DNA of 64,000 bases, taken from a virus. This document shows, piece after piece, positions 21,270 through 40,528 of this stretch; position 1 is the stretch's first letter; every line of letters starts with the position of its first letter. The notes under the pieces were generated by a model, which saw only the letters and a list, made by a program, of their open reading frames with translations, was not told the DNA's origin and ran no database searches. The stretch lies in IMG/VR virus record IMGVR_UViG_3300027896_005002, positions 251,488 through 315,487 of that record; one strand, 5' to 3'. Both the position numbers and the translations under genes were made by a program.

Positions 21270-21301
21270 AGTATTATAATCATGTTAGAAATCATTGATT
21301 T

Positions 21302-21766: not shown

Positions 21767-21767
21767 A

Positions 21768-22286: not shown

Positions 22287-22314
22287 GAATAAATTATAAC
22301 ATAGTTCTCGAGAA

Positions 22315-23076: not shown

Positions 23077-23165
23077 TGCATTATCTCCATATTTTTAAGA
23101 ATACGATAAATTAATATATAATACTTACATAATTTTGTACATATATATTTTTTCTACTTAAAATA

Positions 23166-24287: not shown

Positions 24288-24591
24288 TATACTATAAAAA
24301 TTTTTATACCACTAATAAAAATTTTTATCCTATTTTCGGATAGTCAAACAATAAATCCAAGATCTAAAATTATTTTTTAGAAATATTGTAGATTATCGGC
24401 AGCACTTAAATTGAGTTCAAATACAATCATTGTCTGGTGGTGCAATGTTCTTTAATGACTTAATGATTTTTAAAACAGCAAAAACTGTAAATGAAATTGC
24501 AAGAATAATAGCTGCGATAATTCCAATTTTCTTTTTCATAATTCTCCCTTAATGTATAATCTTATATATCATTTCATTTACAGTTTTTACA

Positions 24592-25770
24592 TTAATATGA
24601 TTTAAATCTATTTGTTTGTCCACCAACATCAATGTCATCCATTACAACAAATATACAAAGACCAATAGTCAATACTAATGTTATAAAAAATGTTATTATA
24701 ATTGCCGCAAATGTCGGTTCTACTGTCAAATAATCAAAATCATGAAAACTTTTCTTAACAAAGTTTTTCTTAACATCGTCTTGCATATACTCAACTACAT
24801 TGTTAAGATTCAATGTATCCATATCTTTAACTTTTCTAGCAACCCTAACTTTGAGTTGCTCCTTATCAGTCCAAGAAATTACTCTTGTCCATGTGATTTT
24901 CTTACCTTGTGTACCAATACACAAGATAAACTCATTCTTATTTCCACCTTTCCAATAGGCTTCTTGTTTGTTAGCTGCCTCACGTGGTTGATTGTTAAAT
25001 ACTAAAATCATCATATGAACCTTTTTAGTTGCCCCATATAATGCATTATACTTTTGAAGTTTAATACCAGCACTATCACTTTTATTAATTCCAAGAATAG
25101 GATAATAAGTCATTATATCATGCGTTTTTAAACTAACAAAACTATTAGGATAATCTGTAAATTTTGGATAATCAAATAATTTGAATGTTGCTTTTTCTAA
25201 TGAATCAATATCTTCAAAATTGAATACAGATTTTGCACACTTTACCCTATTTTGATAAATGTGTGTTTTACAGACTGCATATATATGCTGAAATGAAGTA
25301 TCAAGCATAGAAGTATATGCATTACCATTTTGCGTATAATAATGTCGATGCATGTTTACAAATGTTCTTTTTCCCCATGTTTTGCAAACATCCTCAAAAT
25401 AATTTTGAGTAACATAAAAACGTTCTCCAATATTATCATACACATACCACATCGGCGGATGATAAACTCTGTGTGAACAATCATAAGATTCTGTCGTTGT
25501 ACAATTTTTCCCACAACTGACCGTCCTATAACAAGTTTCACGATGCCATTCATCCCAGTCTTCTTCATAAGCTGCTTTGACCAAATAACTGTTCCATATT
25601 TCTTTAGTATTTAGTTGACTTTCAACAGAAGCTACTTTTCCTATAATAACTGCAATACAAGGAATACCAAAAACCAAAATATATTCCCATATTACAACTT
25701 TTTTGGTAAAGAATATTGCAAGTATTAAAACTGCTGCAAGTGGAATTAATAAAATTAACCATATTAACAT
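24592..25770 (-). CDS. Membrane protein with N- and C-terminal transmembrane segments
   Basis: 392 aa with hydrophobic helices at both ends and a Cys-rich soluble middle. Confidence 0.35.
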   Translation of the reverse strand: MLIWLILLIPLAAVLILAIFFTKKVVIWEYILVFGIPCIAVIIGKVASVESQLNTKEIWNSYLVKAAYEEDWDEWHRETCYRTVSCGKNCTTTESYDCSHRVYHPPMWYVYDNIGERFYVTQNYFEDVCKTWGKRTFVNMHRHYYTQNGNAYTSMLDTSFQHIYAVCKTHIYQNRVKCAKSVFNFEDIDSLEKATFKLFDYPKFTDYPNSFVSLKTHDIMTYYPILGINKSDSAGIKLQKYNALYGATKKVHMMILVFNNQPREAANKQEAYWKGGNKNEFILCIGTQGKKITWTRVISWTDKEQLKVRVARKVKDMDTLNLNNVVEYMQDDVKKNFVKKSFHDFDYLTVEPTFAAIIITFFITLVLTIGLCIFVVMDDIDVGGQTNRFKSY

Positions 25771-25846
25771 ATTAACCTCCTATTAAAAAACAATGGGACA
25801 TTGACCTTATATCAATGTCCCATTTTAGTATACATTTTTACCAGCT

Positions 25847-26404
25847 TTACTTCTTGCCAAGACCAAGATTAACATTATCATCTTTACCTTTTACATATAC
25901 ATCTTCAGTATGAGAAGATGTAATGATCTTGATCTCCAATGGTTTTTTACCGGCTAAAAACATATTCCAGGGTGCCGTAACCAGCATATTGTCATGTTGA
26001 AGTTTGACATCGGTTAATCGTTTTTGCGCCGTTAAAAATTCTGCACGATTAGACTCAATAGCATCCATAACGTCCTTGTATAACTCCGTAGCCATTGCAA
26101 TATTATGTTCATGGATGAATTTGAATATTGGTGATCCATTTGCTTCACCTTGATAACGTGCAGTCATTTCACCAAGCACAACTGTTTTGAAATCTTCCCT
26201 ATAAGCACCAAGTACTTGTACCTTTTGATCAAGAACTTTCCACGTTTTATCAAATACCTGTTTGCAGACACTTTGTTGCGCATCTCCTAAGTTGCGCAGT
26301 TTTGCTTCATTATTTACGGTAGCGAAATAAATCGCAATTAAAATGAATCCAAAGACCACGATCACGATCCCTGCCACCAAACCAATAATTTTGTTTTTGG
26401 ACAT
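25847..26404 (-). CDS. LemA-family membrane protein
   Basis: N-terminal TM (IIGLVAGIVIVVFGFILIAIYF) followed by the LemA-like layout, including the C-terminal APWNMFLAGKKP (LemA FPxNxxA..FG). Confidence 0.5.
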   Translation of the reverse strand: MSKNKIIGLVAGIVIVVFGFILIAIYFATVNNEAKLRNLGDAQQSVCKQVFDKTWKVLDQKVQVLGAYREDFKTVVLGEMTARYQGEANGSPIFKFIHEHNIAMATELYKDVMDAIESNRAEFLTAQKRLTDVKLQHDNMLVTAPWNMFLAGKKPLEIKIITSSHTEDVYVKGKDDNVNLGLGKK

Positions 26405-26434
26405 ACAAACACTCCTTTAAGTTAAATTGTGAAA

Positions 26435-26707
26435 CTATCTTTTCTTCTTTCTTTTCATACAAAAACCAAATTCTTTTTTCTTTCGAATCCATTTAATCCA
26501 GTTTTGAACTTTTTCATTTGCCAGTAATTTTTCTAAAGTATTAAATTGATGTGTTAATTCACTTATTGAAAATAATTCATGAATTTGATGAGCACAATCA
26601 ATACATACTGGAATTGTATCTTTTCCTTTTTTACAATGTGGCGTTAAATGATGTCGTTCTCTATAACAATCAGGAGTTTCTCGAGAACAAATTAAGCATT
26701 TAATCAT
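26435..26707 (-). CDS. HNH endonuclease
   Basis: CLICS...ERHHLTPH...G...PVCIDCAHQIH fits the HNH motif (CxxC...HHxxP...CxxCHxxxH). Confidence 0.55.
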   Translation of the reverse strand: MIKCLICSRETPDCYRERHHLTPHCKKGKDTIPVCIDCAHQIHELFSISELTHQFNTLEKLLANEKVQNWIKWIRKKKEFGFCMKRKKKR

Positions 26708-26711
26708 CTGT

Positions 26712-26841
26712 GTTATTCACCAAACATAACTTCACTATAGTAATCAGTTCCTTGACCTTTTTCATCTGCGGCTGGAAGTGTGTCTTCTATAAGTATGTCT
26801 TCTATAAGTATGTCTTTGGTATCATCATTATCTTCTTTCAT
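26712..26841 (-). CDS. Small acidic ORF with internal tandem repeat (DILIED x2), translationally coupled to the upstream gene
   Basis: Hand translation gives MKEDNDDTKDILIEDILIEDTLPAADEKGQGTDYYSEVMFGE. Its ATG overlaps the stop of ORF 26838..27095 (ATGA). Below the track size threshold. Confidence 0.3.
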
Positions 26842-27095
26842 TGAAAATGCTCCTTGCATAATGTAATAAATCGTTCAACTTGAGGCATCAATGATTTAAT
26901 TTCTTTTAGTTGACTTGACTGAATTGAAGCCGGAACTAAATTCGTTTGTCGTTGTTGTCGATGCCTTGTATGTGAAGAACAGTGACTTTTGACTTTTTGA
27001 TACATTCCAAGACTACAACATTGACGATCAAGTTTGATATGACCACACGTTTTACAATATTCACTTATTTCAGTTACTTTTGGCTTTTTACTCAA
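26838..27095 (-). CDS. Hypothetical Cys-rich protein
   Basis: 85 aa with CKTCG...CCSLG...HCSSH. Confidence 0.3.
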   Translation of the reverse strand: MSKKPKVTEISEYCKTCGHIKLDRQCCSLGMYQKVKSHCSSHTRHRQQRQTNLVPASIQSSQLKEIKSLMPQVERFITLCKEHFQ

Positions 27096-27269
27096 ACATG
27101 TGGGGGCAAGTTACTTTCTTCCAATGGTAAACCAATATTATGTTATTAGTATCATCAATTATCGTAGAATCATGAGCCATTACTGATGTTGTAGTTAATC
27201 CACAAACTGTATGATATTGCATATCAGAACGACGACAATTCCATTCAATTCGCTTATGAGTTATTATTG

Positions 27270-28934
27270 CTAATTGGTCCATAAATCTTCTTTCGTTAAC
27301 CAAGCCCTTTTTGCTATCCAAACACCAAAAGTTTGAACATAACTTAATTGATGTTTTTCATGAGCATCTGAACCAAATGAAATTTTCACACCTTTTTGCT
27401 GACACATTTTCAATATTGATTCATTGGCATCTAATCTATTCGGTTGACAATTTAATTCGACTGCTACATTATTGGCAGCACAAGCATCTAATACTTCACC
27501 AATATTCATTTCATGACCTGGTCTTTCGTTGATTAATCGACCAGTAATATGACCGATTATATCGACCTTGCCAGCTTGAATTACCGTTTTATATATTTCA
27601 GTTACATCTTTTGTTGTCGCTGAATGAATTGAACCAATGACTACATCGAGTTCGTCCAAAACATCATCTGGATAATCTAATGTGCCATCAGTTCTAATGT
27701 CGACTTCTGAACCTATTAAAATTTCAATATCGGAAAATTCTGTCCTCAATTGATGAATTTCTTTTATCTTTTGTTTTAATCTCTCAACACTTAATCCACT
27801 TGCAATTTTCAATGACTGAGAATGATCTGTAATTGCTATCTTTTTCAACCCAATCTTTCTGGCATATTCAACAATGTCTCGAATTGATGAAGTACCATCT
27901 GACCAAGTTGAATGAATATGATAGTCACAAACAATATCATCTTTTTCAATAATATCAATGTCATTACCTAACGCATATTTTTGAAATTCAATTGCTCCTT
28001 CTCGATGTTCCGGAGGAATCCATTCAAATCCTAATAATCGATAAATATCCTTTTCCGTTCCATTGTCCAATCGAGGACCAGTTCTTTCATCATTTTTATC
28101 CCGTTTATATAAACCATATTGAGAAAGAATCCAACCTTTTGCTATTGCAAATATCCTCATCTTTTTGTTATGTTCATCCGAACCAGTCAAATGCATGACA
28201 CCGGATTCAAAAACATCCTCATCAAAAGCATAGCAATCAATTTTTACACCATTTAACCAAACTGATGATTTTTTTTCACCAGAATCAATGACTTTTACTC
28301 CAGGCATATTTTCAAAATATCTTAAGGCTGCTTCTTTATCATCAGCCGTGATCGCAAAATCAACATCACCAACTGTTTCTTTTGACCTACGAAATGACCC
28401 ACAGAATTCAATCCGATTAACCTTAGGTTTCATATATTGAGCTATTAAGACAACATATTCAATAGCCTGATCCAACCTTATTCGTCCTCTAGTGGTCTCT
28501 AAATAAGCAATTCCTTTTTTAATTTTTTCAATGGTTTTGTTTTTAAAAATGTTGGCTATGGAATTGTCAACGATTGCAGCTTTTAAAGCAGCTATTGTAG
28601 AAATACCAAGTTCATGGTATATTTGAAGAGCAGTTTTTTCACCAATACCCTCAACCTTTAATAATTCATCAATTTTAACTGTTGATTGAAGGTACCTTTG
28701 ATTATCAATGATATATTGAATTTTACCGGTTTCAAGAAGCTCTTTTATATGCTGAGAAATTTTCGGTCCAATACCTTTAGTATTATCTAAATCTATACTT
28801 TCTATCCCAACATTTAAATGATCAACAAATGAAGCAGCAGATAGATAAGAACCAAATGAAAACTTGTTTGATCCGGTTGCTTTTTTTATTGTAGCTATAT
28901 CTCGTAAGGCATTTGCTACCAATTGATTTTCCAT
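27270..28934 (-). CDS. Family X DNA polymerase with C-terminal PHP phosphoesterase domain
   Basis: HhH GIGPKISQHI / GIGEKTALQI, nucleotidyltransferase motif CGSFRRSKETVGDVDFAI, then PHP DYHIHSTWSDG...ITDH. Confidence 0.8.
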   Translation of the reverse strand: MENQLVANALRDIATIKKATGSNKFSFGSYLSAASFVDHLNVGIESIDLDNTKGIGPKISQHIKELLETGKIQYIIDNQRYLQSTVKIDELLKVEGIGEKTALQIYHELGISTIAALKAAIVDNSIANIFKNKTIEKIKKGIAYLETTRGRIRLDQAIEYVVLIAQYMKPKVNRIEFCGSFRRSKETVGDVDFAITADDKEAALRYFENMPGVKVIDSGEKKSSVWLNGVKIDCYAFDEDVFESGVMHLTGSDEHNKKMRIFAIAKGWILSQYGLYKRDKNDERTGPRLDNGTEKDIYRLLGFEWIPPEHREGAIEFQKYALGNDIDIIEKDDIVCDYHIHSTWSDGTSSIRDIVEYARKIGLKKIAITDHSQSLKIASGLSVERLKQKIKEIHQLRTEFSDIEILIGSEVDIRTDGTLDYPDDVLDELDVVIGSIHSATTKDVTEIYKTVIQAGKVDIIGHITGRLINERPGHEMNIGEVLDACAANNVAVELNCQPNRLDANESILKMCQQKGVKISFGSDAHEKHQLSYVQTFGVWIAKRAWLTKEDLWTN

Positions 28935-29396
28935 ATATATATAATCAATTGGAAAGTCGTAGATTTGTTAAATCATAGATAAATAACATTATTTTCTTTG
29001 ACTTTTTAATATGGTTCGTATTAAAACAGATATTCATCACAGGCTTTTTTTATAGAAGCTAAATGATCACTTATTACCTAAAACTTCTTCATGACAATTT
29101 TCACAATAGAATCTTTCTTCTCCACGATTATAATCATCATAATTAATTTCTTGTATATGATTACTCAATTATTAGTAGTAGATTTTTGTCGTCGAATAGT
29201 CATTGATTTTTTAATAGGCTTTCCTACAAGACGTTTAGGAGGATGAATGTAGGTTTGTAAATTATAACTCCACATCCAATCATTTTCTTTTATTAATTCT
29301 CCTTCTCTCATTTGATAACCATGGCCATTACTTTGAGCACGTGACGTTTTGTATTTCATGTTCATGTAAATATAATCAAGATAAAAGCTGTAGATT

Positions 29397-29681
29397 TTAC
29401 AGAAGAGCTGTTTGACACATACAATAACCACCATTAAAATATCTATTACATTCCGGACAATAATGCCATGAATATACAGTTGTAAGTTGTAAATTTATAT
29501 CATCCAAATTACCTTCAAATAATTCATTTTTGTCTTTACCAAAAATCGTAAGATTATATTCTTTTTTGACTTTTTGATAACCTAAAGCAAAAGTCTGGTT
29601 AGTAGCACTACAAATATAATGGATTCTTAAAAAAAGTCTATCAAGAGGTTTATTAACATCAAAAATATCAGAATGACTCAT
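29397..29681 (-). CDS. Hypothetical protein
   Basis: 94 aa with a C-terminal CPECN...CMC zinc ribbon. Confidence 0.3.
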   Translation of the reverse strand: MSHSDIFDVNKPLDRLFLRIHYICSATNQTFALGYQKVKKEYNLTIFGKDKNELFEGNLDDINLQLTTVYSWHYCPECNRYFNGGYCMCQTALL

Positions 29682-30016
29682 CGTTCAACAAATAATATAG
29701 CATCATGAGGTAATATTACATAATCTTTACCATTAATTTGTACATCTATAGCATGATCTTTTAAATAAATTGCAATATCGTTTTCTTTTACTTGCAATGG
29801 AACATATTGAGGAGCTTGTTCATGTGGTTTCCACTCTTCATCTGTTTCTGAAATTTTAAAATCAGGAATTGCATACCCAGGACCAATATTGACAACAAAG
29901 CCTTTTGCAATATCTTTTTTAGCAGTCTGAGGTAGTATTATGCCGCCGGCTGTGGTTTCTTCTTTAAGTGGAGCGATTAAAACGCGACATCCAATAACGA
30001 TAATGTTGTTTAACAT
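29678..30016 (-). CDS. groES: Co-chaperonin GroES (Cpn10; T4 gp31 analogue)
   Basis: RVLIAPLKEETTAGGIILPQTAKKDIAKGFVVNIGPGY...VKENDIAIY...DYVILPHDAILFV matches the GroES pattern along its whole length. Confidence 0.8.
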   Translation of the reverse strand: MLNNIIVIGCRVLIAPLKEETTAGGIILPQTAKKDIAKGFVVNIGPGYAIPDFKISETDEEWKPHEQAPQYVPLQVKENDIAIYLKDHAIDVQINGKDYVILPHDAILFVER

Positions 30017-30345
30017 TTATCCTTTGAATAGTCTTCTAACAATTTTACAAGCTTGACATTATCAAATCGTTGTCTATCATTAGCAAGTCGTTTTTTAATA
30101 ATTTTGTAGTACCAACTAAGAATATCTGACATTCTACAAATAATTTCATCCTCTATTTTTTCAAAACAACAATCGCAAACAGTTAATCCTGCAAATGTAG
30201 TATGACTTACTGAATCATTATCATAAATACCTCGTTCATCTTCACCTTCATTATATTTTGCACCACAAATGTCACATGTAATATCACCACATGTTCCGGT
30301 GCCTACTCCAACACCAAATAATTCAGGTGAATCTTCATATCTCAT
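30010..30345 (-). CDS. Hypothetical Cys-rich protein
   Basis: 111 aa with TCGDITCDICG...CDCC. Confidence 0.3.
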   Translation of the reverse strand: MRYEDSPELFGVGVGTGTCGDITCDICGAKYNEGEDERGIYDNDSVSHTTFAGLTVCDCCFEKIEDEIICRMSDILSWYYKIIKKRLANDRQRFDNVKLVKLLEDYSKDKC

Positions 30346-30744
30346 TTTATTAACTCTAATTCATCAGGATCATATGAACCTATAGTATTATCATCATGAT
30401 GTAGTACATCATAACATAAACCATGAGCATCATGACTATCTATTATATGACCAAGTACACCCCATCTACGATGATATTTAGCTTCTTTTGTATATTCATC
30501 ATCATGTAATGGTTTTAATGTTTTAATGAGGATTCTCATATTATTAAAAGTAGGTGCAGTCTACCAAAACTGAAAAGAAAGATGTTTCTTTATCCATCCC
30601 TAAAACTAAAAACTGAAAACTAAAAGACAAACAACTTAAAATAATTTATCTTTTAGACAAGTATAAAATTTATGTCCATATTATTTAACGGTCTTTCGAC
30701 CCATAATACAAACATAAAAAAACTAGTTAACCACACCTACCCAA

Positions 30745-31272
30745 TTAAAGTTCTTCAACAACTGTTGATAAATTAAATTCATCTAATCCATCAACAATCT
30801 CATTAATTTGTCCTTGACAATTTTCTATAAGCTTATTCTTCTGTGCTATAGTCATCTGAGCTTTATATTTATTTGTTGCTTTTCCTTCATCACCATAAGT
30901 TGTCACTGCTTTTAAACCATATACAGGATTTAATTCTTTTAAAATTTGTATGTGAGATTTTAATTCACCCAATTCTAATATTTTTGGAAACATATTATAC
31001 TTGATATTAGTTTTCATAATCCTAGTTTTAAATTCAATAACTTTTGCTTTTTTGTCAATCAATGTTTTCAAAAGTTCATTGAAATCTTCAGGAAAATCAT
31101 TTTCCTCCAAAGTACTAACACAATTTTGCAGTCGATGCTGCAAATCCTTTACCTCACCTTGTAATCTTTTTACTGCTTTCATTGCTCTTACAATTTTCAT
31201 TTGAATATATCTCCTTTTTTCTTTATTATTTGCTAAATCATTAATCAAATTTACACGAAAGCATCTACTCAA
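30745..31272 (-). CDS. Hypothetical protein
   Basis: 175 aa, predicted helical. Confidence 0.3.
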   Translation of the reverse strand: MSRCFRVNLINDLANNKEKRRYIQMKIVRAMKAVKRLQGEVKDLQHRLQNCVSTLEENDFPEDFNELLKTLIDKKAKVIEFKTRIMKTNIKYNMFPKILELGELKSHIQILKELNPVYGLKAVTTYGDEGKATNKYKAQMTIAQKNKLIENCQGQINEIVDGLDEFNLSTVVEEL

Positions 31273-31467
31273 TTTTTAATCTAAAAAAAGTCTGTTCAGC
31301 CAGACTAACATATTCTTCAGCTGATCTAATTTGACCTATTGTTGTACAACCATTAACAACCTTTGCTGTTTTTTCTAACAATTTTATTTGCTCATCGTTC
31401 GTTATAGTTTTTTGTAAAAGATCCACTTTTGCCTGTAAATTGCTTTGAATATTAATAAACTCCATTA

Positions 31468-31965
31468 TTACCCCTCATTCTCATAAACGTCATTCCAACG
31501 ATTTTTTTGACTATCCAACGTATAAATATATGTTTCAACACTTATATGTTTTTCTATAATCGGACTAATAACTTTCCATTCTCCACCTGCTAATACACAA
31601 CCAAATCTCGGTCCACATACAATGACATTATCTTCTGTAGCTTTTTCATACACTGTCTTTAGACACATGTCTAAAGCTTTATAACGAATAGGCGCGATTT
31701 TTCCTGCCCATCGAATTCCATGTTGTGCAATCATATTGGCCACACAAATATCAGGAGTCACTTGAACAAATTGAACTTCTCCAAGTTGAGGATCACCTGT
31801 TGTAAACCAATGTTTATAAGCATTTTCTGATTCTGGATATTTATTTCTTAAAGCAATAACAAAACCTCGACCCCAACCACCTATGTCATTACAACAATGA
31901 ATTATCATAGCTGGTTTTTTGATGGGTTCAGTCGCATCACCTATTAAATAATGGATTTTAAGCAT
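31468..31965 (-). CDS. Macro-domain protein (ADP-ribose binding / hydrolase fold)
   Basis: GDATEPIKKPAMIIHCCNDIGGWGRGFVIAL matches the macro-domain GDIT...AIVNAAN..L..GGGV... layout. Confidence 0.55.
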   Translation of the reverse strand: MLKIHYLIGDATEPIKKPAMIIHCCNDIGGWGRGFVIALRNKYPESENAYKHWFTTGDPQLGEVQFVQVTPDICVANMIAQHGIRWAGKIAPIRYKALDMCLKTVYEKATEDNVIVCGPRFGCVLAGGEWKVISPIIEKHISVETYIYTLDSQKNRWNDVYENEG

Positions 31966-31982
31966 AAATTTTCTTTCTATTA

Positions 31983-32417
31983 TTATTTCAAAAGATATTG
32001 TAAAATTTTATCACGATTTTTCAAATACATTCTGAATTCCTCTAATTTTATTTCTTGCATTGTTTTTGCACTTTGAACATAATCAATTAATGTGTCTATA
32101 TGATCTGGTGGTTCAGTTATTCCTATATTCATTAAATCATCTTGGCCTTCTGTTGTATTTAAATAATCTACTATTTGTTGAAGTAACTTTTTACTTTTAT
32201 CTGTTAAAAATATCTTATCACTGTTCTTATCATGACGTTTTCTACCAGTTATATAAGCCCATTGATTATATCCACCAGGTCCTTTACAAATTTTCTTATA
32301 TAATCCTGATCGTATTCGAGCCCAGAATTTTTCTCTAATTAATAAAGACACTTCATCAAATTCCTCTTCCTCATATTTGTACATCCAATAATAATCGGAC
32401 ACATTATAACTCAACAC
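31983..32417 (-). CDS. Hypothetical protein
   Basis: 144 aa ORF. Confidence 0.3.
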   Translation of the reverse strand: MLSYNVSDYYWMYKYEEEEFDEVSLLIREKFWARIRSGLYKKICKGPGGYNQWAYITGRKRHDKNSDKIFLTDKSKKLLQQIVDYLNTTEGQDDLMNIGITEPPDHIDTLIDYVQSAKTMQEIKLEEFRMYLKNRDKILQYLLK

Positions 32418-33564
32418 TAAAAGTAATGTCTTTTAGTTTTAGTTTTTCAACCAAATATTTTTCAAGATATTTTCGAGATTTCATTTTTTCTAAATTATCA
32501 AAAAATTCTAGTATTGTTTTAACTTTGTTATCATATAATTGAAACATATAAGATGGATTTGCACAATCTTTTACAGCCAATGCAAATTCTTTTCGACTTT
32601 TTGAAAAATATTCTTTAAATTGTTCTGTTTCAGAATTAATTCTTTGAATATAAGCATCATATTTAGCTTTAACATCCATTACTATTTCAGTAAATTCACT
32701 AAAATAACCCAAAAATTCATCAATTTGATTATCAATTACCAAACTAATTACTGATCTTAAGCTACTACCTACTTTACTTTTTATGTGATGAATTGCAACA
32801 TATGATGGATTTTTAACTTTAACTCTTTTAAAACTGATGTTATCATCATCATTTTTTGTATAATCAACAGCAACAAATCCTTCATCTAAAGCTGCAAGAC
32901 TTTTGACTAAATCCAATAATTGATTTTTGTCAGCAAATGTTTCTATTTTTGGTAAATCAATACCAAGTTCTATTGACCACTCTTTTAAGTTTTTTAATGG
33001 AAGTTCTTCCCATGTAATAATCCGTCGCATCATTAATAAATGAAGTTGTCTATCTTTATAAATAGTAACAACTCTATTTTCTGGTGATGTTATTTCAAAA
33101 CAATATATAAATGACTTACTAATATTTTTCCAAAAATTTGGATATTTCTCTGTTGTTTTATAAAATAGATCTTTAAAAGTAATAGATGTTAGACCTACAC
33201 ATGATTCATTTTCAATCATGCCTCTTGTTGACATTAACCATTTATCATTGTAATTAAAGACAGATATTAATGATCCATCTAATTTTTCAAGGCCTACAGC
33301 TTTTGTAAAATCAAATGTATCTGTTATTCGAGGAACTTCACTATAATTAAAAAATCGTCGAAATGGATATGATATAATTCTCCAAGAATTTTTTTCTAGA
33401 ACTAATCCTCGACACTCTAAAACAATTAGATGATCTTTAGGCGAATCAATTTGATTATAATTTAAGACGACTAAGGACTCAAATTCGCTATAATCAACGC
33501 CAAATTCAATTTTAAGATTTTCTAAAGATTTTTCATTTAAATATTGTTGTACATTTAATAGCAT
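32404..33564 (-). CDS. RNA ligase 1 (T4 RnlA-like)
   Basis: Motif I VGLEKLDGSLISVF matches T4 Rnl1 ...KEDGSLVSTY (lysine adenylation site); length 386 aa is close to T4 Rnl1. Confidence 0.65.
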   Translation of the reverse strand: MLLNVQQYLNEKSLENLKIEFGVDYSEFESLVVLNYNQIDSPKDHLIVLECRGLVLEKNSWRIISYPFRRFFNYSEVPRITDTFDFTKAVGLEKLDGSLISVFNYNDKWLMSTRGMIENESCVGLTSITFKDLFYKTTEKYPNFWKNISKSFIYCFEITSPENRVVTIYKDRQLHLLMMRRIITWEELPLKNLKEWSIELGIDLPKIETFADKNQLLDLVKSLAALDEGFVAVDYTKNDDDNISFKRVKVKNPSYVAIHHIKSKVGSSLRSVISLVIDNQIDEFLGYFSEFTEIVMDVKAKYDAYIQRINSETEQFKEYFSKSRKEFALAVKDCANPSYMFQLYDNKVKTILEFFDNLEKMKSRKYLEKYLVEKLKLKDITFSVEL

Positions 33565-33608
33565 AGGTTTTATTATATGCTATTTTTTACAAGTGTTTTA
33601 TAAAATAA

Positions 33609-33642
33609 CTAAGGCTTGTTAAAAAAATCTAACAAGCCTTAG
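33609..33642 (-). terminator. Rho-independent terminator (13-bp perfect stem) downstream of ORF 33684..33947
   Basis: ctaaggcttgtta ... taacaagccttag inverted repeat with an 8-nt loop, then a T-rich run on the minus strand. Confidence 0.55.
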
Positions 33643-33683
33643 CAGTAGTCACTCATTTAAAAAATTCATTGCACAGCGTTGAA

Positions 33684-33947
33684 TTAAGTAAATTGTAAGA
33701 TAGATATTTTAGCTAGAGTGAGATTTGGATATCCATTTTGTAATCCAGTATCCAAAATAGCTTGTTTAATTTGAGTATGCCATTGGCTAGGAGAATTATC
33801 TGGGTCAAGTGAGATATTTGATCCAATATTATGCGTTTCACCTGCTGTATCTGTGTACCATGCATCCATTGAAACCAATATATTACCTGGTATCTGAGGA
33901 TCAGGTATGTCTTGAGTATACTTAAAACAAGTTGCTCTTTGTGTCAT
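33684..33947 (-). CDS. Hypothetical protein (higher-GC island)
   Basis: 87 aa ORF; composition clearly richer in G and C than the surroundings. Confidence 0.3.
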   Translation of the reverse strand: MTQRATCFKYTQDIPDPQIPGNILVSMDAWYTDTAGETHNIGSNISLDPDNSPSQWHTQIKQAILDTGLQNGYPNLTLAKISILQFT

Positions 33948-33960
33948 AAATTACTCCTTT

Positions 33961-35178
33961 CTATATTTCAGCATCCACTGTGCAATGAACTTTTATTTCT
34001 TGCCCTACTGACCAAGCTGCTAGACCTGTACAGTTAATATCTATACCGTCTGCAGATGGGTTCGCTGCTGCTGTAGCTGTTGCATCTGTAGCAGCAGGTA
34101 CGTTTCTCATAAAAGCATTAGCAGCACTGGGATTGTAGAAAGTAGTCGTGACTGGTGCAACTCTCATTTGCACTGGAAATTTCCATTGCATTGTTGAAGA
34201 AGTAGTAACAGCAGCAGCAATTGCAACCATTCCCCTTAAAGCGCCTGCAACACCACCACTTTGAGCAGGAGCAATAAGTGGAGGAAACGTCTTTTGATAA
34301 AATCTAAGACACCTTATAAGTTGTAATGATTGACTTCTAGGATACCAATCCCTAATCTCATAACCTGGATATAGACCGACCTCAGATATATTTAGTTCAT
34401 CATTATTAAGAGGTTGTCCATTAGTCCATATTGTTGGTATAATATTTTTACAAGTTGAAGGTATAATAAAAGTAGCTGAATATCGCACCCAGTTTGTTGT
34501 CAGAACACAAGTCATACCACTACCTACTAATGTTCCACCATCAACTAAAACTGGCGTGATATAAGTTAAGTTTGCACCAGCAGTCAAAGTAGGATCAGTT
34601 CCTACTGCACCCCACGCACTAATGTAACCTGCAGCACCAGAAGGCACTGTATCAACAGTTCCTCCACTGCCAAGAGCAACAATGCCCAGACGAACAGTCA
34701 TCGAAGATGCAACTGAATATTTCATCTTACATTGAAATCTAACAGTAAGACCTCTAAGATGTGCCATGTCATTTGTCTCAATTACCTGTCCGATAGCAAA
34801 CTTACCTGTATTCGTTATTTTCTTAAATTTTCCATATTGCCTAGTTGCTAAATTTGTCTCTGGTGTAGTCATTGTATCAACTACTTGAAAGTTCACACTT
34901 GCATTTTCATTTGATATCCACCAACGATCAGGACCATAAACTCTACCACCTACACTTGAATAAGTCGTCAATGTCGTTGGCACTTGTCGTTGAGCATAAT
35001 CAAATTCACCATTTGTGATGACGTTAGCATCTCTCAATCCAACAGGTGTAAGCGTGTCAATTTCACCAGAATCAAGTATTACCTTTAATCTACTATCAGC
35101 AGTATCATAATATATTGCTGCTTTATTTGTAGATGGTGTTCCTGGTGTTGCTGTCTTGTTAAGTACTAAAAAACTCAT
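33961..35178 (-). CDS. Putative fibrous / structural-like protein (higher-GC island), function unknown
   Basis: 405 aa, Thr/Ser/Gly/Ala-rich; N-terminus MSFLVLNKTATPGTPST...IYYDTADSRLKV is reminiscent of fibre-type proteins. Unassigned. Confidence 0.3.
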   Translation of the reverse strand: MSFLVLNKTATPGTPSTNKAAIYYDTADSRLKVILDSGEIDTLTPVGLRDANVITNGEFDYAQRQVPTTLTTYSSVGGRVYGPDRWWISNENASVNFQVVDTMTTPETNLATRQYGKFKKITNTGKFAIGQVIETNDMAHLRGLTVRFQCKMKYSVASSMTVRLGIVALGSGGTVDTVPSGAAGYISAWGAVGTDPTLTAGANLTYITPVLVDGGTLVGSGMTCVLTTNWVRYSATFIIPSTCKNIIPTIWTNGQPLNNDELNISEVGLYPGYEIRDWYPRSQSLQLIRCLRFYQKTFPPLIAPAQSGGVAGALRGMVAIAAAVTTSSTMQWKFPVQMRVAPVTTTFYNPSAANAFMRNVPAATDATATAAANPSADGIDINCTGLAAWSVGQEIKVHCTVDAEI

Positions 35179-35196
35179 AATTTAATTTCTCCTTTC

Positions 35197-35619
35197 TTAT
35201 CCTATTTCAAAATAACTTGCAAGTCCAATTTCCGTAGTAAATGTTGCTACAATTTCATATAAAAACGGCATATATAATGACTGCCCTGCTGCTATAGTCA
35301 CATTTGCTGCTGGAGCGACAGTATTCGTAGTTATTACTCCAATTGATCCTGAATAGCCAGATGTACCTATACCTGAATATCCAGATATGCCAGAATATCC
35401 TGATAAACCAACTCCAACTGCTCCTGAATAACCTGATGTACCTACTCCAGAATATCCTGATGTTCCTACACCTGAATATCCACTATAACCCGATAAACCT
35501 GAATAACCGCTTGTCCCTATTTTTCCGGAATAACCAGACTGTCCTGCTGCTGCCCCGGAATAACCTGAACGACCTGACCATCCACTTTTTCCTCTTGGCG
35601 GTTGGTTAAAAACATCCAT
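35197..35619 (-). CDS. Gly/Ser/Tyr repeat protein (SGYSG repeats)
   Basis: About 15 copies of (T/L/I)SGYSG in the N-terminal two-thirds, with a non-repetitive C-terminus. Confidence 0.4.
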   Translation of the reverse strand: MDVFNQPPRGKSGWSGRSGYSGAAAGQSGYSGKIGTSGYSGLSGYSGYSGVGTSGYSGVGTSGYSGAVGVGLSGYSGISGYSGIGTSGYSGSIGVITTNTVAPAANVTIAAGQSLYMPFLYEIVATFTTEIGLASYFEIG

Positions 35620-35631
35620 ATATATCTCCTA

Positions 35632-36231
35632 TTAAGCAACTAAAAGATTGGCGTAAGAATTCCAGGAATTTGTAATAATTGATTGAACAACAGAATCGGC
35701 GACAAGAGCTCCATTGGCTTGAACGGTTGCATTCAAAGCTAACGCAGACATGAATTCCATAACTACGACCATAATATCCGGCAAAGCGAATGCAATCAAC
35801 TTCATTCTGTTGGCATGATTCGTAGTTCCAGGATCTTCCAAGAACACGGCAGCAGCTTGAGTTATAACCGCAGTCAAACATTTTCTTTGAAGGACTTCGG
35901 AATTGTACAAATCCGCAATCACAATATAATTGGAAGTAACAATTGTAACATCTTTATCCATATCATTTACAGGCTCGTCCTGAACATAATATGCTTTTTC
36001 CCCGCCTGTACCTTCCCCATATACTTTGAAGGTTATTTCTTTGGTTTGCGAAATCGGCTTCTTATTTTGTTCTGAATATCCGACTTCCAAAACCATCATG
36101 CTATAAGACTTAGTATTGGTGAGGATAGTATCATCCACAGAAGAAACAAGAACAGGAGTTCCTACATCTTTATACATTGCTGTTATGTCTGCAATTATTT
36201 GTGCCTTAGTCATATCCGCCATATTCTCCAC
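35632..36231 (-). CDS. Hypothetical protein (higher-GC island)
   Basis: 199 aa ORF. Confidence 0.3.
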   Translation of the reverse strand: MENMADMTKAQIIADITAMYKDVGTPVLVSSVDDTILTNTKSYSMMVLEVGYSEQNKKPISQTKEITFKVYGEGTGGEKAYYVQDEPVNDMDKDVTIVTSNYIVIADLYNSEVLQRKCLTAVITQAAAVFLEDPGTTNHANRMKLIAFALPDIMVVVMEFMSALALNATVQANGALVADSVVQSIITNSWNSYANLLVA

Positions 36232-36245
36232 CTTTCCCTTAAATT

Positions 36246-36833
36246 CTAACCTTCTGTAAAATGCTGTTTTTGATTTAGTAAATGTCTCTGTGTAGTTATA
36301 TTTTTAAATCGTCTTACTCTTGGTTTTCGAGGCATTCTCATCAATTCTTTATGTTTGCGTTTAAAATTTTGTTTTCCTGTCAATTGTTTCTTAGATTCAG
36401 GATGTTCATCCAAATATTTTTGTTGTCGATAAAGAGGCATTCTAAACCATTTCTTGCGTTGTACAGCCTTAGCTTTTGCTAAACGTATAAATTGTTCATC
36501 AATTATTGCAGCATGGACCATATTTTCTCGTTGTTTTCTAAATCGATCCCATAAATCTCGTTTTTCTTTTAATCTGAATTCTGCTTCTTCTAAACTTCTT
36601 GCTGTAAAAGTCGTTTCAGTAACAAAATCATTAAACATGAATGTCTTCATATCTGGCCAATAATCTACATATTGAATACCCAATTTTTCAGCAACATTTT
36701 CACCAACTTGATCCAGTCGTTTTTTTGATTTTGGATGATCTGCTAAATATTTCTCTTGCTGCAAACTAGTCATATTTTCAAACAACATTGCTTTTTTAAC
36801 AAATTCAATTTGCAATGATGAAAAATGCTTCAT
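36246..36833 (-). CDS. Basic protein with repeated xQxKYLxxHP(K/E)SKK motif; divergent paralogue of the next gene
   Basis: N-terminus MKHFSSLQIEFVKKA...QQEKYLADHPKSKKRL, and a second copy RQQKYLDEHPESKKQL near the C-terminus. Confidence 0.4.
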   Translation of the reverse strand: MKHFSSLQIEFVKKAMLFENMTSLQQEKYLADHPKSKKRLDQVGENVAEKLGIQYVDYWPDMKTFMFNDFVTETTFTARSLEEAEFRLKEKRDLWDRFRKQRENMVHAAIIDEQFIRLAKAKAVQRKKWFRMPLYRQQKYLDEHPESKKQLTGKQNFKRKHKELMRMPRKPRVRRFKNITTQRHLLNQKQHFTEG

Positions 36834-36911
36834 TCCTCCTCCTCTTTTTATAATAGATTTATAAAAGAATCTACAATAAATAGTTTGATTATGAACAAAA
36901 AGGAGTATCTA

Positions 36912-37742
36912 ATGAAACATATAGCTACAATTCAATCTGAATTTTTAAAGCATGCTCGCAAATGGGATGAAAAATCGCTCACAGAACAAAAACGATATCT
37001 TCGCAAGCATCCAAAAACAAAACGTCGAGTCACAGCAAAACCAGAAACTTTAGATTTTGATAAATGGATTCTTGACAAACAATTCATGAACTTGCAAACA
37101 AATCAAAAAACTCCATTTGATAAACTCCCAGAAGAACAGCAAAAATCTATTCGTGATCATTTTACTCAAGAAAAAAAACACTTTGAACAAGAACAAGATG
37201 ATCCAACAGATGATATAGAAGATGGAGATGAGGAAAAAACTAAGTTGAAAAAATTTACAATTATGGGTGGTCCTGGTGAAGGTGGTAGTGTAAGAGCAGA
37301 AAATGCTCAAGACGCAATGAAAAAATACTTAATGAAATATGAAGAATATAGTGAAGATAGAGCAAATAAAGAATTAAATGTTGAAAAAGGTGAATTTGAT
37401 CCTAAAGCTAATGCAACAATGTTTGGTAATTTTCAAGTTAAGGAAGAAACAAAACCAATATCAGAACGTCAAGTACGACGACTTGGTAGAAAAATTAGAA
37501 GAGATATTAAAGGCGCCGGTAAAGAACAAGACGGAATAGAACTTGATATTGCAAAAAATGTTATAAATTCAAATCCTCAATTAAAAAAATATTTCTTGGA
37601 TCAAAATATAGCAGAAGATAAAATTGCAGAAGCTTTTGCAGATTATTTAGTCAAACCTAAGAAAAAAGAAAAAGAACGCACTCAAACAGATCAATTTGGA
37701 CGAAAAATTCCATTAGTTGGACCACAAATGCCTACTAACTAA
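36912..37742 (+). CDS. Paralogue of 36246..36833 on the opposite strand (shares the MKHxxxxQxEF...KxYLxxHPKxKxR N-terminus)
   Basis: Starts MKHIATIQSEFLKHARKWDEKSLTEQKRYLRKHPKTKRRV, preceded by SD AAGGAG 8 nt upstream of ATG 36912 (track ORF 36825 lacks a plausible start). Acidic and Lys-rich thereafter. Confidence 0.45.
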   Translation: MKHIATIQSEFLKHARKWDEKSLTEQKRYLRKHPKTKRRVTAKPETLDFDKWILDKQFMNLQTNQKTPFDKLPEEQQKSIRDHFTQEKKHFEQEQDDPTDDIEDGDEEKTKLKKFTIMGGPGEGGSVRAENAQDAMKKYLMKYEEYSEDRANKELNVEKGEFDPKANATMFGNFQVKEETKPISERQVRRLGRKIRRDIKGAGKEQDGIELDIAKNVINSNPQLKKYFLDQNIAEDKIAEAFADYLVKPKKKEKERTQTDQFGRKIPLVGPQMPTN

Positions 37743-37766
37743 TTTTTGGTCTCAAAGGAAAAATAA

Positions 37767-38126
37767 ATGAACTTCAATTTATTTGTATCTATTTGTGTCA
37801 TTGTTTTCATTACTTTCATCGCCTTATCTTTTATATCACCTACACTTGAAAAATATCGAAAATATTTAATAATTCTAATACCTGCAATCTTTGTTATCTT
37901 AGGATTAGTAATATTTAAAAGAAGTAAAAACAATCAACCAGATCCAATTATTAGTAAAACAATAGATGATATTGAAAATGATTTCAAAGAAGCCAGTGAT
38001 GTAGCATCACTTAAAACAAGACTTGCAGATGAAAAAAGAGATGCTGATATAAAGAAACTAAAAGAAATTACTGAAATTAAAGATAAAAATATTCGTCGTC
38101 AAAAATTAGCAGAACTAATAGGATAA
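37767..38126 (+). CDS. Small membrane protein (two TM helices, charged C-terminal tail)
   Basis: FVSICVIVFITFIALSFI and LIILIPAIFVILGLVIF hydrophobic helices, then a Lys/Asp/Glu-rich tail; holin-like layout. Confidence 0.35.
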   Translation: MNFNLFVSICVIVFITFIALSFISPTLEKYRKYLIILIPAIFVILGLVIFKRSKNNQPDPIISKTIDDIENDFKEASDVASLKTRLADEKRDADIKKLKEITEIKDKNIRRQKLAELIG

Positions 38127-38129
38127 ATC

Positions 38130-38675
38130 ATGAAAACAATAATTGTGATGTTCTTGCTTTATTTAAATATTTTTGCTGCAGTAAAGATATCTATTTCTGA
38201 TAATCCACCTGAGGATACAACAAAATATAATTTTATGCCTGAAAAACCACTTGCATTAGATAGTCTTTTAATAATTAAAACAGATTACTTCAAAGATTCA
38301 GCAAAATATAGTGATTTTAAATCAATTGCAATTAATAGTGGCGCCGTTAAAATTTGTGCAAATGATAGTTGTAATAAGGAAAAACAGATTACTATTCCTG
38401 CAGGTTTATTGATATCTGATAGAACTGCATATGAGCTTGCTTGTTATAGAATTGCTATGACAGATGTCAATAGACGACTTTTAATAGCTAAAGAAATACT
38501 TTATCATTATGATAAAAATATTAAACAAGCTCAACTAATATATAATTATCAAATTGAAGATCTTAGACAACAAGCAAAAAGATCTTGGTTTGAACAAAAC
38601 ATCAAATATATTGCTTTTATTACAGGTCTTGTAACTGCTATTGCTACGGAATTTGCAGTAATGAGAGTTAAATAG
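38130..38675 (+). CDS. Secreted / membrane-anchored protein (N-terminal signal, C-terminal TM)
   Basis: MKTIIVMFLLYLNIFAA signal-like N-terminus; C-terminal IAFITGLVTAIATEFAV hydrophobic anchor. Confidence 0.35.
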   Translation: MKTIIVMFLLYLNIFAAVKISISDNPPEDTTKYNFMPEKPLALDSLLIIKTDYFKDSAKYSDFKSIAINSGAVKICANDSCNKEKQITIPAGLLISDRTAYELACYRIAMTDVNRRLLIAKEILYHYDKNIKQAQLIYNYQIEDLRQQAKRSWFEQNIKYIAFITGLVTAIATEFAVMRVK

Positions 38676-38702
38676 ATTTGTAATGTCTCTGGTCATAAAA
38701 AA

Positions 38703-38730
38703 AAGACCGAGATCATCGGTCTTTTCTTTC
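38703..38730. terminator. Bidirectional rho-independent terminator between the convergent plus-strand islet and the vWA gene
   Basis: aagaccga gatca tcggtctt hairpin flanked by an A-run upstream and a T-run downstream. Confidence 0.55.
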
Positions 38731-38758
38731 CCCTAAGGAAATATCATATCCTTACTTT

Positions 38759-39550
38759 TTAAGTAAAGAATGAATTTGAAGTACCTACAACGGTTTGGCT
38801 TTTCCGAATGATTGACTGACTGACGAGACCCATTGATTCTCGAATATCGTGAGCAGAGCTACCGGATGTTTTAGCATTAGGAAATCCCATTGCCTTTGCA
38901 TCCGCATCACCACTTCCGAATCCGACATAGACAAAGTAGAACATTTCCGTTTTGTGGCAATCATCTACAAGCACTTTAACATCACTTGCTTTAAAATCTT
39001 GTGAATCATTGTCCTGGCCATCCGTCATTACTGCAATAATGCATTTTGTGCGAATTCCATTATCATTCAACGATTTTGCATAAACACGCATACCAGTAAT
39101 TGCACTGACAATTGTGTCAAACAATCGCGTTGAATCACCATTGGCAATATATTGACTGCCAATTTTGCCGATGTCGCCGACCTTTTTGAAACCGTATAAA
39201 ATGTCTTCCTTTGTGGCAAACGTCCTGGTACTTACAAGCATTGAATCTGCTTGTTTTGATTTCCTCATTGCATCGATGACCAATTCGTCAAATGAATCAC
39301 GAACCGTTAATTCATTGCCTTTCATTGAAAATGACGCATCCAATATAAGAGATGCAATTGTTACTGTGTCTGTCACCAGATCTTCAGCACCAACGCCCGT
39401 GCAACCTATTATATTGGTGTCATCCAAACTGTTAATCATCACATTTCCAGCCAATGAATTAATTGGATTGACAGCAGATGCACTTGCACTCTGAATAAGG
39501 TTTTGTATTGTAGATAAGTCTACTACCGGATTATTTTGGCTTCCAGCCAT
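38759..39550 (-). CDS. von Willebrand factor A (vWA) domain protein (TerY-like)
   Basis: MIDAS motif LILDASFSMKG (DxSxS) and downstream AVMTDGQDND (TDG). Visibly higher GC than neighbours. Confidence 0.65.
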   Translation of the reverse strand: MAGSQNNPVVDLSTIQNLIQSASASAVNPINSLAGNVMINSLDDTNIIGCTGVGAEDLVTDTVTIASLILDASFSMKGNELTVRDSFDELVIDAMRKSKQADSMLVSTRTFATKEDILYGFKKVGDIGKIGSQYIANGDSTRLFDTIVSAITGMRVYAKSLNDNGIRTKCIIAVMTDGQDNDSQDFKASDVKVLVDDCHKTEMFYFVYVGFGSGDADAKAMGFPNAKTSGSSAHDIRESMGLVSQSIIRKSQTVVGTSNSFFT

Positions 39551-39571
39551 AATGTTTTATCCTTTCTTTTT

Positions 39572-40528
39572 TTAAAACTGAAAATCCGTGCTTTTCATAA
39601 TGTTCATTCCGGCCTTTTTGAATTTTTTGAATTCATTTTGTGTGATGGCTTCAAAATCCACTAGAGGATGTTTAACCGAACTCATACAATCCTCGAAAAT
39701 GAATACCTTTTTCAAAACATCCGGATCTTTTACGACAACGGCAAAGTAGTCGTAGATTTGCAATTCAGTTTCCAACACGCAATGGCTCTTTGCCTGGCCC
39801 ATGATGATGACCTTGTCGTGTTTCATCAACAGATTCAAGAAATCCGTATTGAATCCGCCTTGTTTGTGCTTTGCAATCGGTACTTCGGGCTTCAGAATAC
39901 CGTACATTTCTGATTGTGGAATGAGACCTTTTTGCAAGAAGTTGAGTTGGGATTTTCTTGCAAAAGCATGGAACGCAAGAATTTCAAACAGAGAAGGATC
40001 CATTGCATTGCCGGGCGTTCCAAGCATTGTATGATAAGGCCACAACATCAGTTTCTTTTGGGAATTTCTTTCCAATGTTGCTTCATACTCGATACTGCCT
40101 ACCGGATCGATGATTGCCTGAAAATCACCTTTATCCATTAACTTTTTCTCAAGTATGGAATAAATATCCGGTTTTTGCTGTTTCAGTGTCCTCCACCATG
40201 ACCGGTAGAAGATCTGGAAAATAAGATGGGTGTCCAAAGAAGCGAAGATCGTCGTTATTCTATCCATATTTGTCAGGATAAAAGTAATTGCTCGACGAAT
40301 ATCTTCTTCAGCTCCATCAACATATAGTGATCCATCCTTGTGACAAAAATCGATTTGCATATCGATGATCATCAATGCAATCTTCTCTTTGTCTGTTACC
40401 GATGCCGGAATGGACATTGCATCGGCTTCCTGTTCAACAATTCCGACTCCAGCCGGATTTTTGTACAACCGAGGTAGAAACAGTGTTCCTACTTTTGCTG
40501 GATCATAAAACGACGGCTTAAATGTCAT
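39572..40528 (-). CDS. Isochorismatase-family cysteine hydrolase (candidate nicotinamidase PncA-like)
   Basis: ALMIIDMQIDFC...GSLYVDGAE (catalytic Asp context) and IMGQAKSHCVLETE (catalytic Cys context GxxxxxCVxxT). Confidence 0.6.
   Translation of the reverse strand: MTFKPSFYDPAKVGTLFLPRLYKNPAGVGIVEQEADAMSIPASVTDKEKIALMIIDMQIDFCHKDGSLYVDGAEEDIRRAITFILTNMDRITTIFASLDTHLIFQIFYRSWWRTLKQQKPDIYSILEKKLMDKGDFQAIIDPVGSIEYEATLERNSQKKLMLWPYHTMLGTPGNAMDPSLFEILAFHAFARKSQLNFLQKGLIPQSEMYGILKPEVPIAKHKQGGFNTDFLNLLMKHDKVIIMGQAKSHCVLETELQIYDYFAVVVKDPDVLKKVFIFEDCMSSVKHPLVDFEAITQNEFKKFKKAGMNIMKSTDFQF

Follow-up and report, generated by a model that had tools for sequence, protein, structure and literature searches.

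The window analyzed here, a 64,000-nucleotide stretch (positions 251,488 to 315,487) of the IMG/VR virus record IMGVR_UViG_3300027896_005002, probably encodes a dispersed set of RNA healing and sealing enzymes. The set comprises four proteins: 1) an RNA ligase of the Rnl1 family; 2) a stand-alone kinase of the polynucleotide kinase (PNK) type; 3) a cREC (cyclic-phosphate-processing receiver-like) domain protein; and 4) a small RNA-ligase-like nucleotidyltransferase, which will be called NTase205. Each of the four could be placed in its family by sequence or fold comparison. Proteins identical to those of the window are found on metagenomic contigs of 415,903-416,029 bp, so the window derives from an uncultured huge phage with a genome of about 416 kb, whose contig in the European Nucleotide Archive (ENA) is ERZ27247850 k141_2484546. 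The G+C content of the window is 31%, and almost every gene lies on one strand. A megablast search of 50,697 phage records detected no close relative of the 6 kb around the Rnl1 gene.

An RNA repair set resembling that of bacteriophage T4 had been proposed in the first-pass annotation of this DNA, which listed an Rnl1-like ligase, an Rnl2-like nucleotidyltransferase and a P-loop kinase, with two tRNA genes. An open reading frame (ORF) check finds all three protein genes on the minus strand at the positions given below, with the ligase motifs EKLDGSL and DKLDGSN in place. A regular-expression scan of all ORFs of at least 40 aa finds K-x-D-G in just three real genes, which encode the Rnl1-like protein, NTase205 and the DNA ligase LigA; therefore, these motifs are not chance matches. 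The cREC gene near the kinase and a macro-domain gene near the Rnl1 gene are additions to the set listed earlier.

The Rnl1-family ligase

The Rnl1-like protein (386 aa; 32404..33564, minus strand) consists of a nucleotidyltransferase domain followed by a putative C-terminal domain and contains the EKLDGSL motif at residues 93-99. It matches the full PF09511 profile (positions 1-227; E 2.6e-19, 70.4 bits against a cut-off of 28.3) and positions 22-368 of the 377 in phrog_562 (E 1.7e-51). A phmmer alignment to the structure of T4 Rnl1 (2c5u; E 3.5e-14) pairs residues 35-362 with T4 residues 37-356 and places K94 opposite K99, the lysine that is adenylylated in T4 Rnl1. These matches uphold the original Rnl1-like assignment. 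The protein can be assigned firmly to the T4 RnlA family, and its homologs at 58% identity carry the Joint Genome Institute (JGI) name 'T4 RnlA family RNA ligase'.

Mutagenesis in the Shuman laboratory reportedly found that R54, K75, F77, K99, G102, K119, E159, E227, G228, K240 and K242 are essential in T4 Rnl1. In the alignment, R54, K75, F77, K99, G102 and K119 correspond to R52, R70, F72, K94, G97 and R114 of the phage protein, so that lysine is changed to arginine at R70 and R114. The motif III glutamate, the EG pair and the K-x-K motif are kept. The C-terminal region (residues 255-362) could be aligned to T4 Rnl1 up to residue 356, in a sequence alignment only and with low similarity.

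Because its score against the NCBIfam equivalog-level model TIGR02308 (99.6 bits) is below the cut-off of 242.25, the protein is classed as a divergent family member and not as a close ortholog of T4 RnlA. The best homolog from an isolated phage is 34% identical.

NTase205, a minimal ligase-like protein

NTase205 (205 aa; 61598..62215, minus strand) is a single-domain protein with DKLDGSN at residues 21-27. Its earlier description as an Rnl2-like nucleotidyltransferase holds in part: the motifs are those of a ligase and the predicted fold is closest to that of T4 Rnl2, but the PF09414 score (23.8 bits) is under the cut-off of 27, and the C-terminal domain that is the signature of Rnl2 is present neither in the sequence nor in an AlphaFold2 model. 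About half of the listed relatives of NTase205 have a precomputed PF09414 hit. The profile phrog_548 ('RNA ligase') matches with an E value of 2.7e-11 over its nucleotidyltransferase part only. In a comparison of 33 family members, the invariant residues are K22 of motif I, E87 of motif III, D109 of motif IIIa, E160, G161 and K165 of motif IV (E160-G-x-x-x-K165), and K179 and K181 of motif V (K179-x-K181). Thus, the KxDG lysines of both ligase-like proteins, K94 and K22, lie in ligase motif I.

The AlphaFold2 model of NTase205 is confident, with a predicted local distance difference test (pLDDT) value of 91.4 and a predicted template modeling (pTM) score of 0.88. Its top Foldseek hits are three structures of T4 Rnl2 (2hvr, 1s68 and 2hvq; E 3e-8 to 2e-7, template modeling (TM) score 0.63). 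Further matches are to TbREL1, NgrRnl, Rnl3, Rnl1 and fungal Trl1; the best 28 are all RNA ligases, and DNA ligases match more weakly. At the level of sequence, single-protein and family-profile searches of the PDB gave spurious hits only, with no true match among the solved structures.

NTase205 thus has the same predicted nucleotidyltransferase fold as T4 Rnl2, trypanosome REL1 and Naegleria NgrRnl (Foldseek E 3e-8 to 3e-6, TM about 0.6) and shares with them motifs I, III, IIIa, IV and V, including K-x-D-G-x-N in motif I, although the identity is just 13-17%. The chain ends 24 residues past motif V, where the model adds just a short terminal helix. The protein has neither the C-terminal domain of Rnl2 and REL1 nor the N-terminal domain of Rnl5, and it is shorter than the nucleotidyltransferase domain of T4 Rnl2 alone (233 residues modeled in 1s68). 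As modeled, NTase205 is an RNA-ligase-type nucleotidyltransferase domain without an accessory domain; its fold is Rnl2-like, but it is not a canonical Rnl2 because the C-terminal domain is lacking and the PF09414 score is below the cut-off.

The NTase205 family is large, with at least 1333 clusters at 90% identity, and the best 120 of those listed span 190-212 aa. Among isolated and published phages, it is found in huge ones only, namely XacN1, the Lak phages and metagenomic phages of 485-642 kb. It is also found in some bacterial chromosomes, where it is an isolated gene. The XacN1 homolog (locus L020) is annotated as hypothetical and lies two genes from an NAD+ synthetase gene; three 'Rnl2 family' paralogs were counted in XacN1 by Iyer et al. 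No functional name for the NTase205 relatives was found in public sources. It may tentatively be proposed that these proteins form an uncharacterized clade of single-domain RNA-ligase-fold proteins of about 205 aa, which would be the smallest polynucleotide-ligase-type enzymes known to us. The clade, with some members in bacteria, would be typical of tRNA islands in huge phages (XacN1, Lak and others larger than 380 kb) and might act on tRNA substrates, autonomously or with a partner, in a manner unlike that of Rnl1-Rnl5. If active, NTase205 would define a minimal RNA-sealing unit and could serve as a compact tool enzyme.

The tRNA genes around NTase205

Two tRNA genes had been noted beside the Rnl2-like gene. 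ARAGORN and Rfam confirm that they flank NTase205, one on each side, and both are atypical. The longer one (62858..62948, minus strand; 88 + 3 nt) combines the anticodon GCA and the discriminator U73 with a long variable arm, and its CCA is encoded. Its Rfam score is 47.9 bits, where the threshold of the tRNA model RF00005 is 29 bits. It folds as a cloverleaf with an extra arm (z = -3.1), and the variable arm is a 4-bp stem closed by GAAA. The shorter tRNA-like gene (61225..61292, minus strand; 67-68 nt, 36.1 bits) also has the anticodon GCA and U73, with no encoded CCA and no D stem; Rfam flags the D-stem pairs as non-canonical, and the RNA folds without a D arm. The two genes are 1.6 kb apart, and their first 9 nt and whole anticodon arms are identical. 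The shorter gene may be a degenerate paralog of the longer one or a tRNA without a D arm.

Long-arm tRNA-Cys genes similar to the longer one are found on two other viral contigs, L041 (587-671) and L051 (2102-2186). The combination of a long variable arm, U73 and a GCA anticodon is that of the selC* tRNA-Cys (Mukai et al. 2017, PMC5389517). In contrast to selC* tRNA-Cys, the tRNA described here is phage-encoded and has the canonical 7/5 arrangement of acceptor and T stems, and no selenocysteine machinery was seen alongside it. Two other IMG/VR contigs, L038 and L077 (239 and 354 kb), carry tRNAs of about 90 nt for Thr, His and Arg, amino acids normally served by short tRNAs; therefore, tRNAs with an extra arm may be common in large phages.

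All four tRNA genes seen in the phage (Phe, Ser and the two with GCA) cluster around NTase205, at distances of up to about 3.5 kb, and the other ~60 kb of the window has none. The suggestion that the tRNA genes next to the ligase-like gene fit a role in tRNA repair gains from the fact that their proximity is a family-wide pattern. Of the 38 metagenomic NTase205 loci that span at least 6 kb, 26 have a tRNA gene no more than 5 kb from NTase205 and 20 have one no more than 2 kb away, and all but one of the 120 tRNAs within 2 kb (119/120) are on the same strand as NTase205. The tRNA density is 0.2-0.4 per kb over the whole +/-10 kb around the gene and is flat, with no peak at the gene; therefore, only residence in tRNA islands is claimed for NTase205. 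A pairing with one particular tRNA was considered and rejected in view of this flat density.

The tRNA island contains several other features. A perfect 61-nt tandem duplication (2.1 copies; 62209..62338), bounded by the 8-nt repeat TATGAAAC, abuts the NTase205 start codon. Both the window and the JGI assembly (L001) contain it, whereas the ENA assembly (L002) of the same phage lacks it; the discrepancy reflects either polymorphism or the assembly. A small zinc-ribbon-like ORF (CxxC...CxxC; 62285..62480, minus strand) has one in-frame TAG between the cysteine pairs in all three assemblies and could be a pseudogene or be read through locally. Stop-codon recoding, which the in-frame TAG brings to mind, was rejected, as TAG ends 11 of 75 genes. 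A homing endonuclease gene of the DUF559/HNH type (62950..63825, minus strand) lies between tRNA-Ser and the long tRNA-Cys; its product is 291 aa from a TTG start in the window and 405 aa as called in L002 (8110..9327).

The stand-alone kinase

The first-pass annotation had taken a small P-loop protein (142 aa; 2163..2591, minus strand) for a possible source of the polynucleotide kinase function, and the homology searches bear this out. The P-loop sequence is GIQACGKST. The protein is matched by AAA_33 (E 9.6e-9), by TIGR01663 (E 2.9e-14) and by phrog_505 ('polynucleotide kinase'; profile positions 3-142 of 295), and it gave no hit to families of deoxynucleoside monophosphate kinases. Its closest solved relative is the kinase domain of mammalian PNKP (E 1.2e-16). 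The P-loop, the catalytic aspartate (INLD aligned to VNRD), the Walker B-like VIDNTN, which is conserved, and the lid arginines align between the two. In contrast to mammalian PNKP, the phage protein is the kinase domain alone, without the FHA or phosphatase domains. With only 142 residues, it also lacks the C-terminal HAD (DxDGT) domain of T4-type Pnkp.

Bacteria and phages both have members of this family, which are stand-alone kinases of 143-160 aa with an invariant P-loop, D32, R37, D57, R95 and R99. The gene of a Paenibacillus homolog (49-51% identity) immediately adjoins a Thg1-like gene, of the type that repairs tRNA 5' ends, and a PF09414 RNA ligase gene, which is an RNA-end-repair context. 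A Pseudomonas homolog among acetyltransferase genes is uninformative. Viral members are rare in the searches, with one distant match in IMG/VR and seven in isolated phages. A function of the kinase as a seryl-tRNA(Sec) kinase (PSTK) for the long-arm tRNA was considered and rejected: the similarity to PSTK (E 7e-7) is partial and far below that to PNKP, and reflects a superfamily resemblance.

It is unlikely that this protein serves instead as a DNA 5'-kinase in base-excision or single-strand-break repair, together with PolX, LigA, glycosylases and a 5'-3' exonuclease, in parallel to mammalian PNKP, Pol beta and DNA ligase. Such a function would agree with the TIGR01663 match and with the best solved relatives being the kinase domains of mammalian DNA-repair PNKP. 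Possible partners in such a function are encoded in the window: a polymerase of the Pol beta family that carries a PHP domain, UDG, an Ogg-type glycosylase, a 5'-3' exonuclease and LigA. However, these genes do not adjoin the kinase gene either, the cREC gene is two genes away and the Paenibacillus homolog lies among Thg1-like and RNA ligase genes. Furthermore, kinases of the PNK family often take both RNA and DNA, so that the two roles are not mutually exclusive.

The cREC protein and possible 3'-end healing

The cREC protein (124 aa; 3144..3518, minus strand) is encoded two genes from the kinase and matches PF20274 (E 4e-18, 66.3 bits, cut-off 27). It keeps D16, R20, D58-H59-D60 and H95, which are invariant across 40 homologs. 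The domain has been predicted to be a metal-independent, cyclic-phosphate-processing enzyme by authors who call it experimentally uncharacterized (Iyer et al. 2021, PMC7824862; 2022, PMC9503650). Following this published prediction, the phage protein is a candidate for opening 2',3'-cyclic phosphates. The cREC domain has been linked to RNA ligases (PMC7824862), and phage neighborhoods that unite it with a nucleotide kinase and a T4-like tRNA ligase have been described (PMC9503650). The cREC region of Acinetobacter phage Herod is uninformative.

The same three families are present here, and the phage also has the Nudix, macro-domain and NAD+ synthesis genes of the NAD/ADP-ribose network described by Iyer et al. 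In contrast to the published neighborhoods, neither a sirtuin nor KptA was detected in the window, and the ligase gene is about 29 kb from the kinase-cREC pair.

Other enzymes that might act on the 3' end were sought in the window. A motif scan found neither the DxDG[TV] motif of HAD proteins nor the 2H motif (HxT...HxT) in real genes, and Pfam inventories of the scanned window ORFs of at least 90 aa contain no KptA, sirtuin, RtcB, HD or metallophosphatase family; the inventories include a hit to the dUTPase_2 family. As no 3'-phosphatase was found in the window, the phage is a natural test case for the predicted action of cREC on cyclic phosphates.

A proposed model of RNA repair and its comparison with T4

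For these dispersed genes we infer a coupling into one pathway, a set of substrates and a role against host nucleases. The process might be as follows. A host ribonuclease, for example an anticodon nuclease, would cut a tRNA, leaving 2',3'-cyclic-phosphate and 5'-OH ends. The kinase would phosphorylate the 5'-OH end, and the cREC protein, as predicted in the literature, would open the cyclic phosphate. The leftover phosphate would be removed by an enzyme beyond those recognized in the window. The Rnl1-like ligase would then adenylylate itself on K94, pass the AMP to the 5'-phosphate and seal the break. NTase205 would most likely use K22 and the same chemistry to seal a second class of RNA breaks or tRNA-related nicks, and it may need a partner because it has no accessory nick-sensing domain. 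For breaks that already have 3'-OH and 5'-phosphate ends, the ligases alone would suffice.

The resemblance to tRNA repair in T4, where Pnkp acts with Rnl1 and Rnl2 is a second ligase, includes the following: 1) a ligase of the Rnl1 family whose catalytic residues are those of T4 and whose C-terminal region aligns with T4 Rnl1 at low similarity; 2) a 5' kinase of the PNK type; 3) a second enzyme of the ligase superfamily; and 4) a scattered arrangement of the genes in both genomes. The two systems differ in that the HAD 3'-phosphatase fused to the kinase in T4 Pnkp is absent from the phage kinase and was not found elsewhere in the window, in that the second enzyme is a bare nucleotidyltransferase domain of 205 aa where T4 has Rnl2, and in that a cREC gene is situated near the kinase gene. 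The original claim of a T4-like repair set is therefore retained as regards the families. It does not hold for healing. With a kinase that lacks a phosphatase domain, and with neither HAD nor 2H motifs in real genes of the window, a 2',3'-cyclic phosphate could not be healed by the kit first listed. The companion claim, that the dispersed genes act jointly against anticodon nucleases, is a plausible inference.

The observations that weigh against a common repair pathway are several. The genes are located at about 2, 32 and 62 kb and not in one operon. The Pfam inventories and the motif scan detected no 3'-phosphatase, 2H phosphoesterase, KptA/Tpt1 or sirtuin in the window, and the enzymatic activity of cREC is a published prediction. 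The closest solved relatives of the kinase are DNA-repair kinases. T4 Rnl2 requires its C-terminal domain for step 2 of ligation, and this is the domain that NTase205 does not have. The association of NTase205 is with tRNA islands in general and is not a gene-specific linkage, as the flat tRNA density indicates. An all-against-all BLAST comparison of the ORFs of 24 NTase205 loci found no conserved protein-coding neighbor, only small groups of close relatives. In favor of such a pathway, NTase205 and an Rnl1-family gene are 1.1 kb apart on a Leptospiraceae contig from a metagenome-assembled genome. On balance, a dispersed healing and sealing set still appears the probable explanation.

Phage RNA repair is a recognized counter-defense against host nucleases that cut tRNA, and this locus adds an example of the predicted kinase, cREC and Rnl1 combination in an uncultured huge phage. 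Comparative-genomic surveys already describe such kits, both the cREC, kinase and T4-like ligase combination and the multiple Rnl1 and Rnl2 paralogs of jumbo phages. What novelty remains lies in NTase205, the more useful lead: it appears to represent a very large family, unnamed and uncharacterized, of minimal ligase-like enzymes that reside in, and travel with, phage tRNA islands.

Possible alternative functions of the ligase loci

Two genes downstream of the Rnl1 gene, co-oriented and tightly spaced with it, is a gene for a macro-domain protein of the SCO6735/BT1257 type (165 aa; 31468..31965, minus strand; PDB 5e3b, E 7.6e-38; 2fg1, E 9e-35). Its weaker hits are to an ADP-ribose 1''-phosphate phosphatase and to the DarG antitoxin (E 2.9e-5). 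Whether the protein belongs to the repair kit is uncertain. The chances are about even that it is unrelated to RNA repair and reverses ADP-ribosylation by the host, such as that by DarT-type toxins or ADP-ribosyltransferase defenses. This function is suggested by the nearest structures being SCO6735/BT1257 macrodomains, by the weak DarG hit and by the presence in the phage of a large NAD+ salvage set and a Nudix gene; in addition, the adjacency of the Rnl1 and macro genes was not seen in three relatives. A function in RNA repair is favored by the proximity and common orientation of the two genes. Macro domains also process ADP-ribose-1''-phosphate, which arises from the removal of RNA 2'-phosphates (PMC9503650), and a weak hit to PDB 6lfu was obtained here.

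Between the macro and Rnl1 genes is an ORF of 144 aa (31983..32417, minus strand) that overlaps the end of the Rnl1 gene, including its stop codon, by 14 nt. It has no hit in Pfam, PHROGs or NCBIfam and no relative in the sampled Rnl1 loci.

NTase205 might mature or maintain the tRNAs of the phage itself, joining pieces or adenylylating or modifying ends, and be co-expressed with the tRNA island for this purpose and not for damage repair. We consider this improbable. NTase205 is indeed found amid tRNA-rich regions and is co-oriented with the tRNAs in most loci; two unusual tRNA-Cys-like genes flank it in this phage, and genes for PTH2, an eIF-1A-like protein and an annotated glutamyl-tRNA amidotransferase recur near it in other loci. 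In bacterial chromosomes (L008-L012), however, the gene is isolated among metabolic genes with no tRNA nearby, and no split or permuted tRNA was seen in the present phage. The chemistry, moreover, would be identical to that of repair.

A tail-fiber protein gene (405 aa; 33961..35178, minus strand; phrog_4492 'tail fiber protein', E 4.1e-19) lies 0.4 kb upstream of the Rnl1 gene. Linkage of the Rnl1 gene to either the tail-fiber or the macro gene was examined and rejected, as neither protein was matched at E 1e-4 in three related Rnl1 loci. It is very unlikely that the attachment of tail fibers, which is the other activity of T4 gp63, and not RNA repair is the main function of the Rnl1-like protein: the phrog_562 annotation ('RNA ligase and tail fiber protein attachment catalyst') and the tail-fiber gene upstream on the same strand point that way, but the conservation of every ligase catalytic residue argues that the ligase activity is under selection, the tail-fiber protein is unmatched in the three related loci, and in T4 the two activities coexist, so that a tail-fiber role would be additional and not alternative.

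Other genes of the window

The third KxDG enzyme, the NAD-dependent DNA ligase LigA (656 aa; 58954..60924, minus strand), has the DNA_ligase_aden domain (E 2e-51) together with OB, HHH_2 and BRCT domains, and its gene is 0.7 kb from NTase205. At the other end of the window, the region of 4288..7269 (minus strand) and nearby encodes a DNA polymerase III alpha subunit with a PHP domain and an intein splicing domain. Near it are genes for PolX (Pol beta-type, with a PHP domain), UDG, an Ogg-type glycosylase and a 5'-3' exonuclease. This set of replication and base-excision-repair genes is extensive for a phage.

The NAD+ salvage and synthesis genes form a large set at about 48000..56400 and 20106..40528 of the window. 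Its members include NAPRTase, a glutamine-dependent NAD synthase (52805..54412), an isochorismatase-family protein and a Nudix protein (55802..56365). In the same window are the NAD-dependent LigA and the macro-domain protein.

A protein with a eukaryotic-type Ser/Thr kinase domain (40580..42439, minus strand) is encoded next to a PP2C phosphatase, ABC transporter components and an OmpA-family protein. The window also encodes a GroES-like protein (29678..30016), a NusG domain and a sigma-70 region 2 protein. Just beyond the window, at 4087..5428 of L001/L002, are a full-length trigger-factor homolog (Trigger_N, FKBP_C and Trigger_C) and a DnaB-type helicase.

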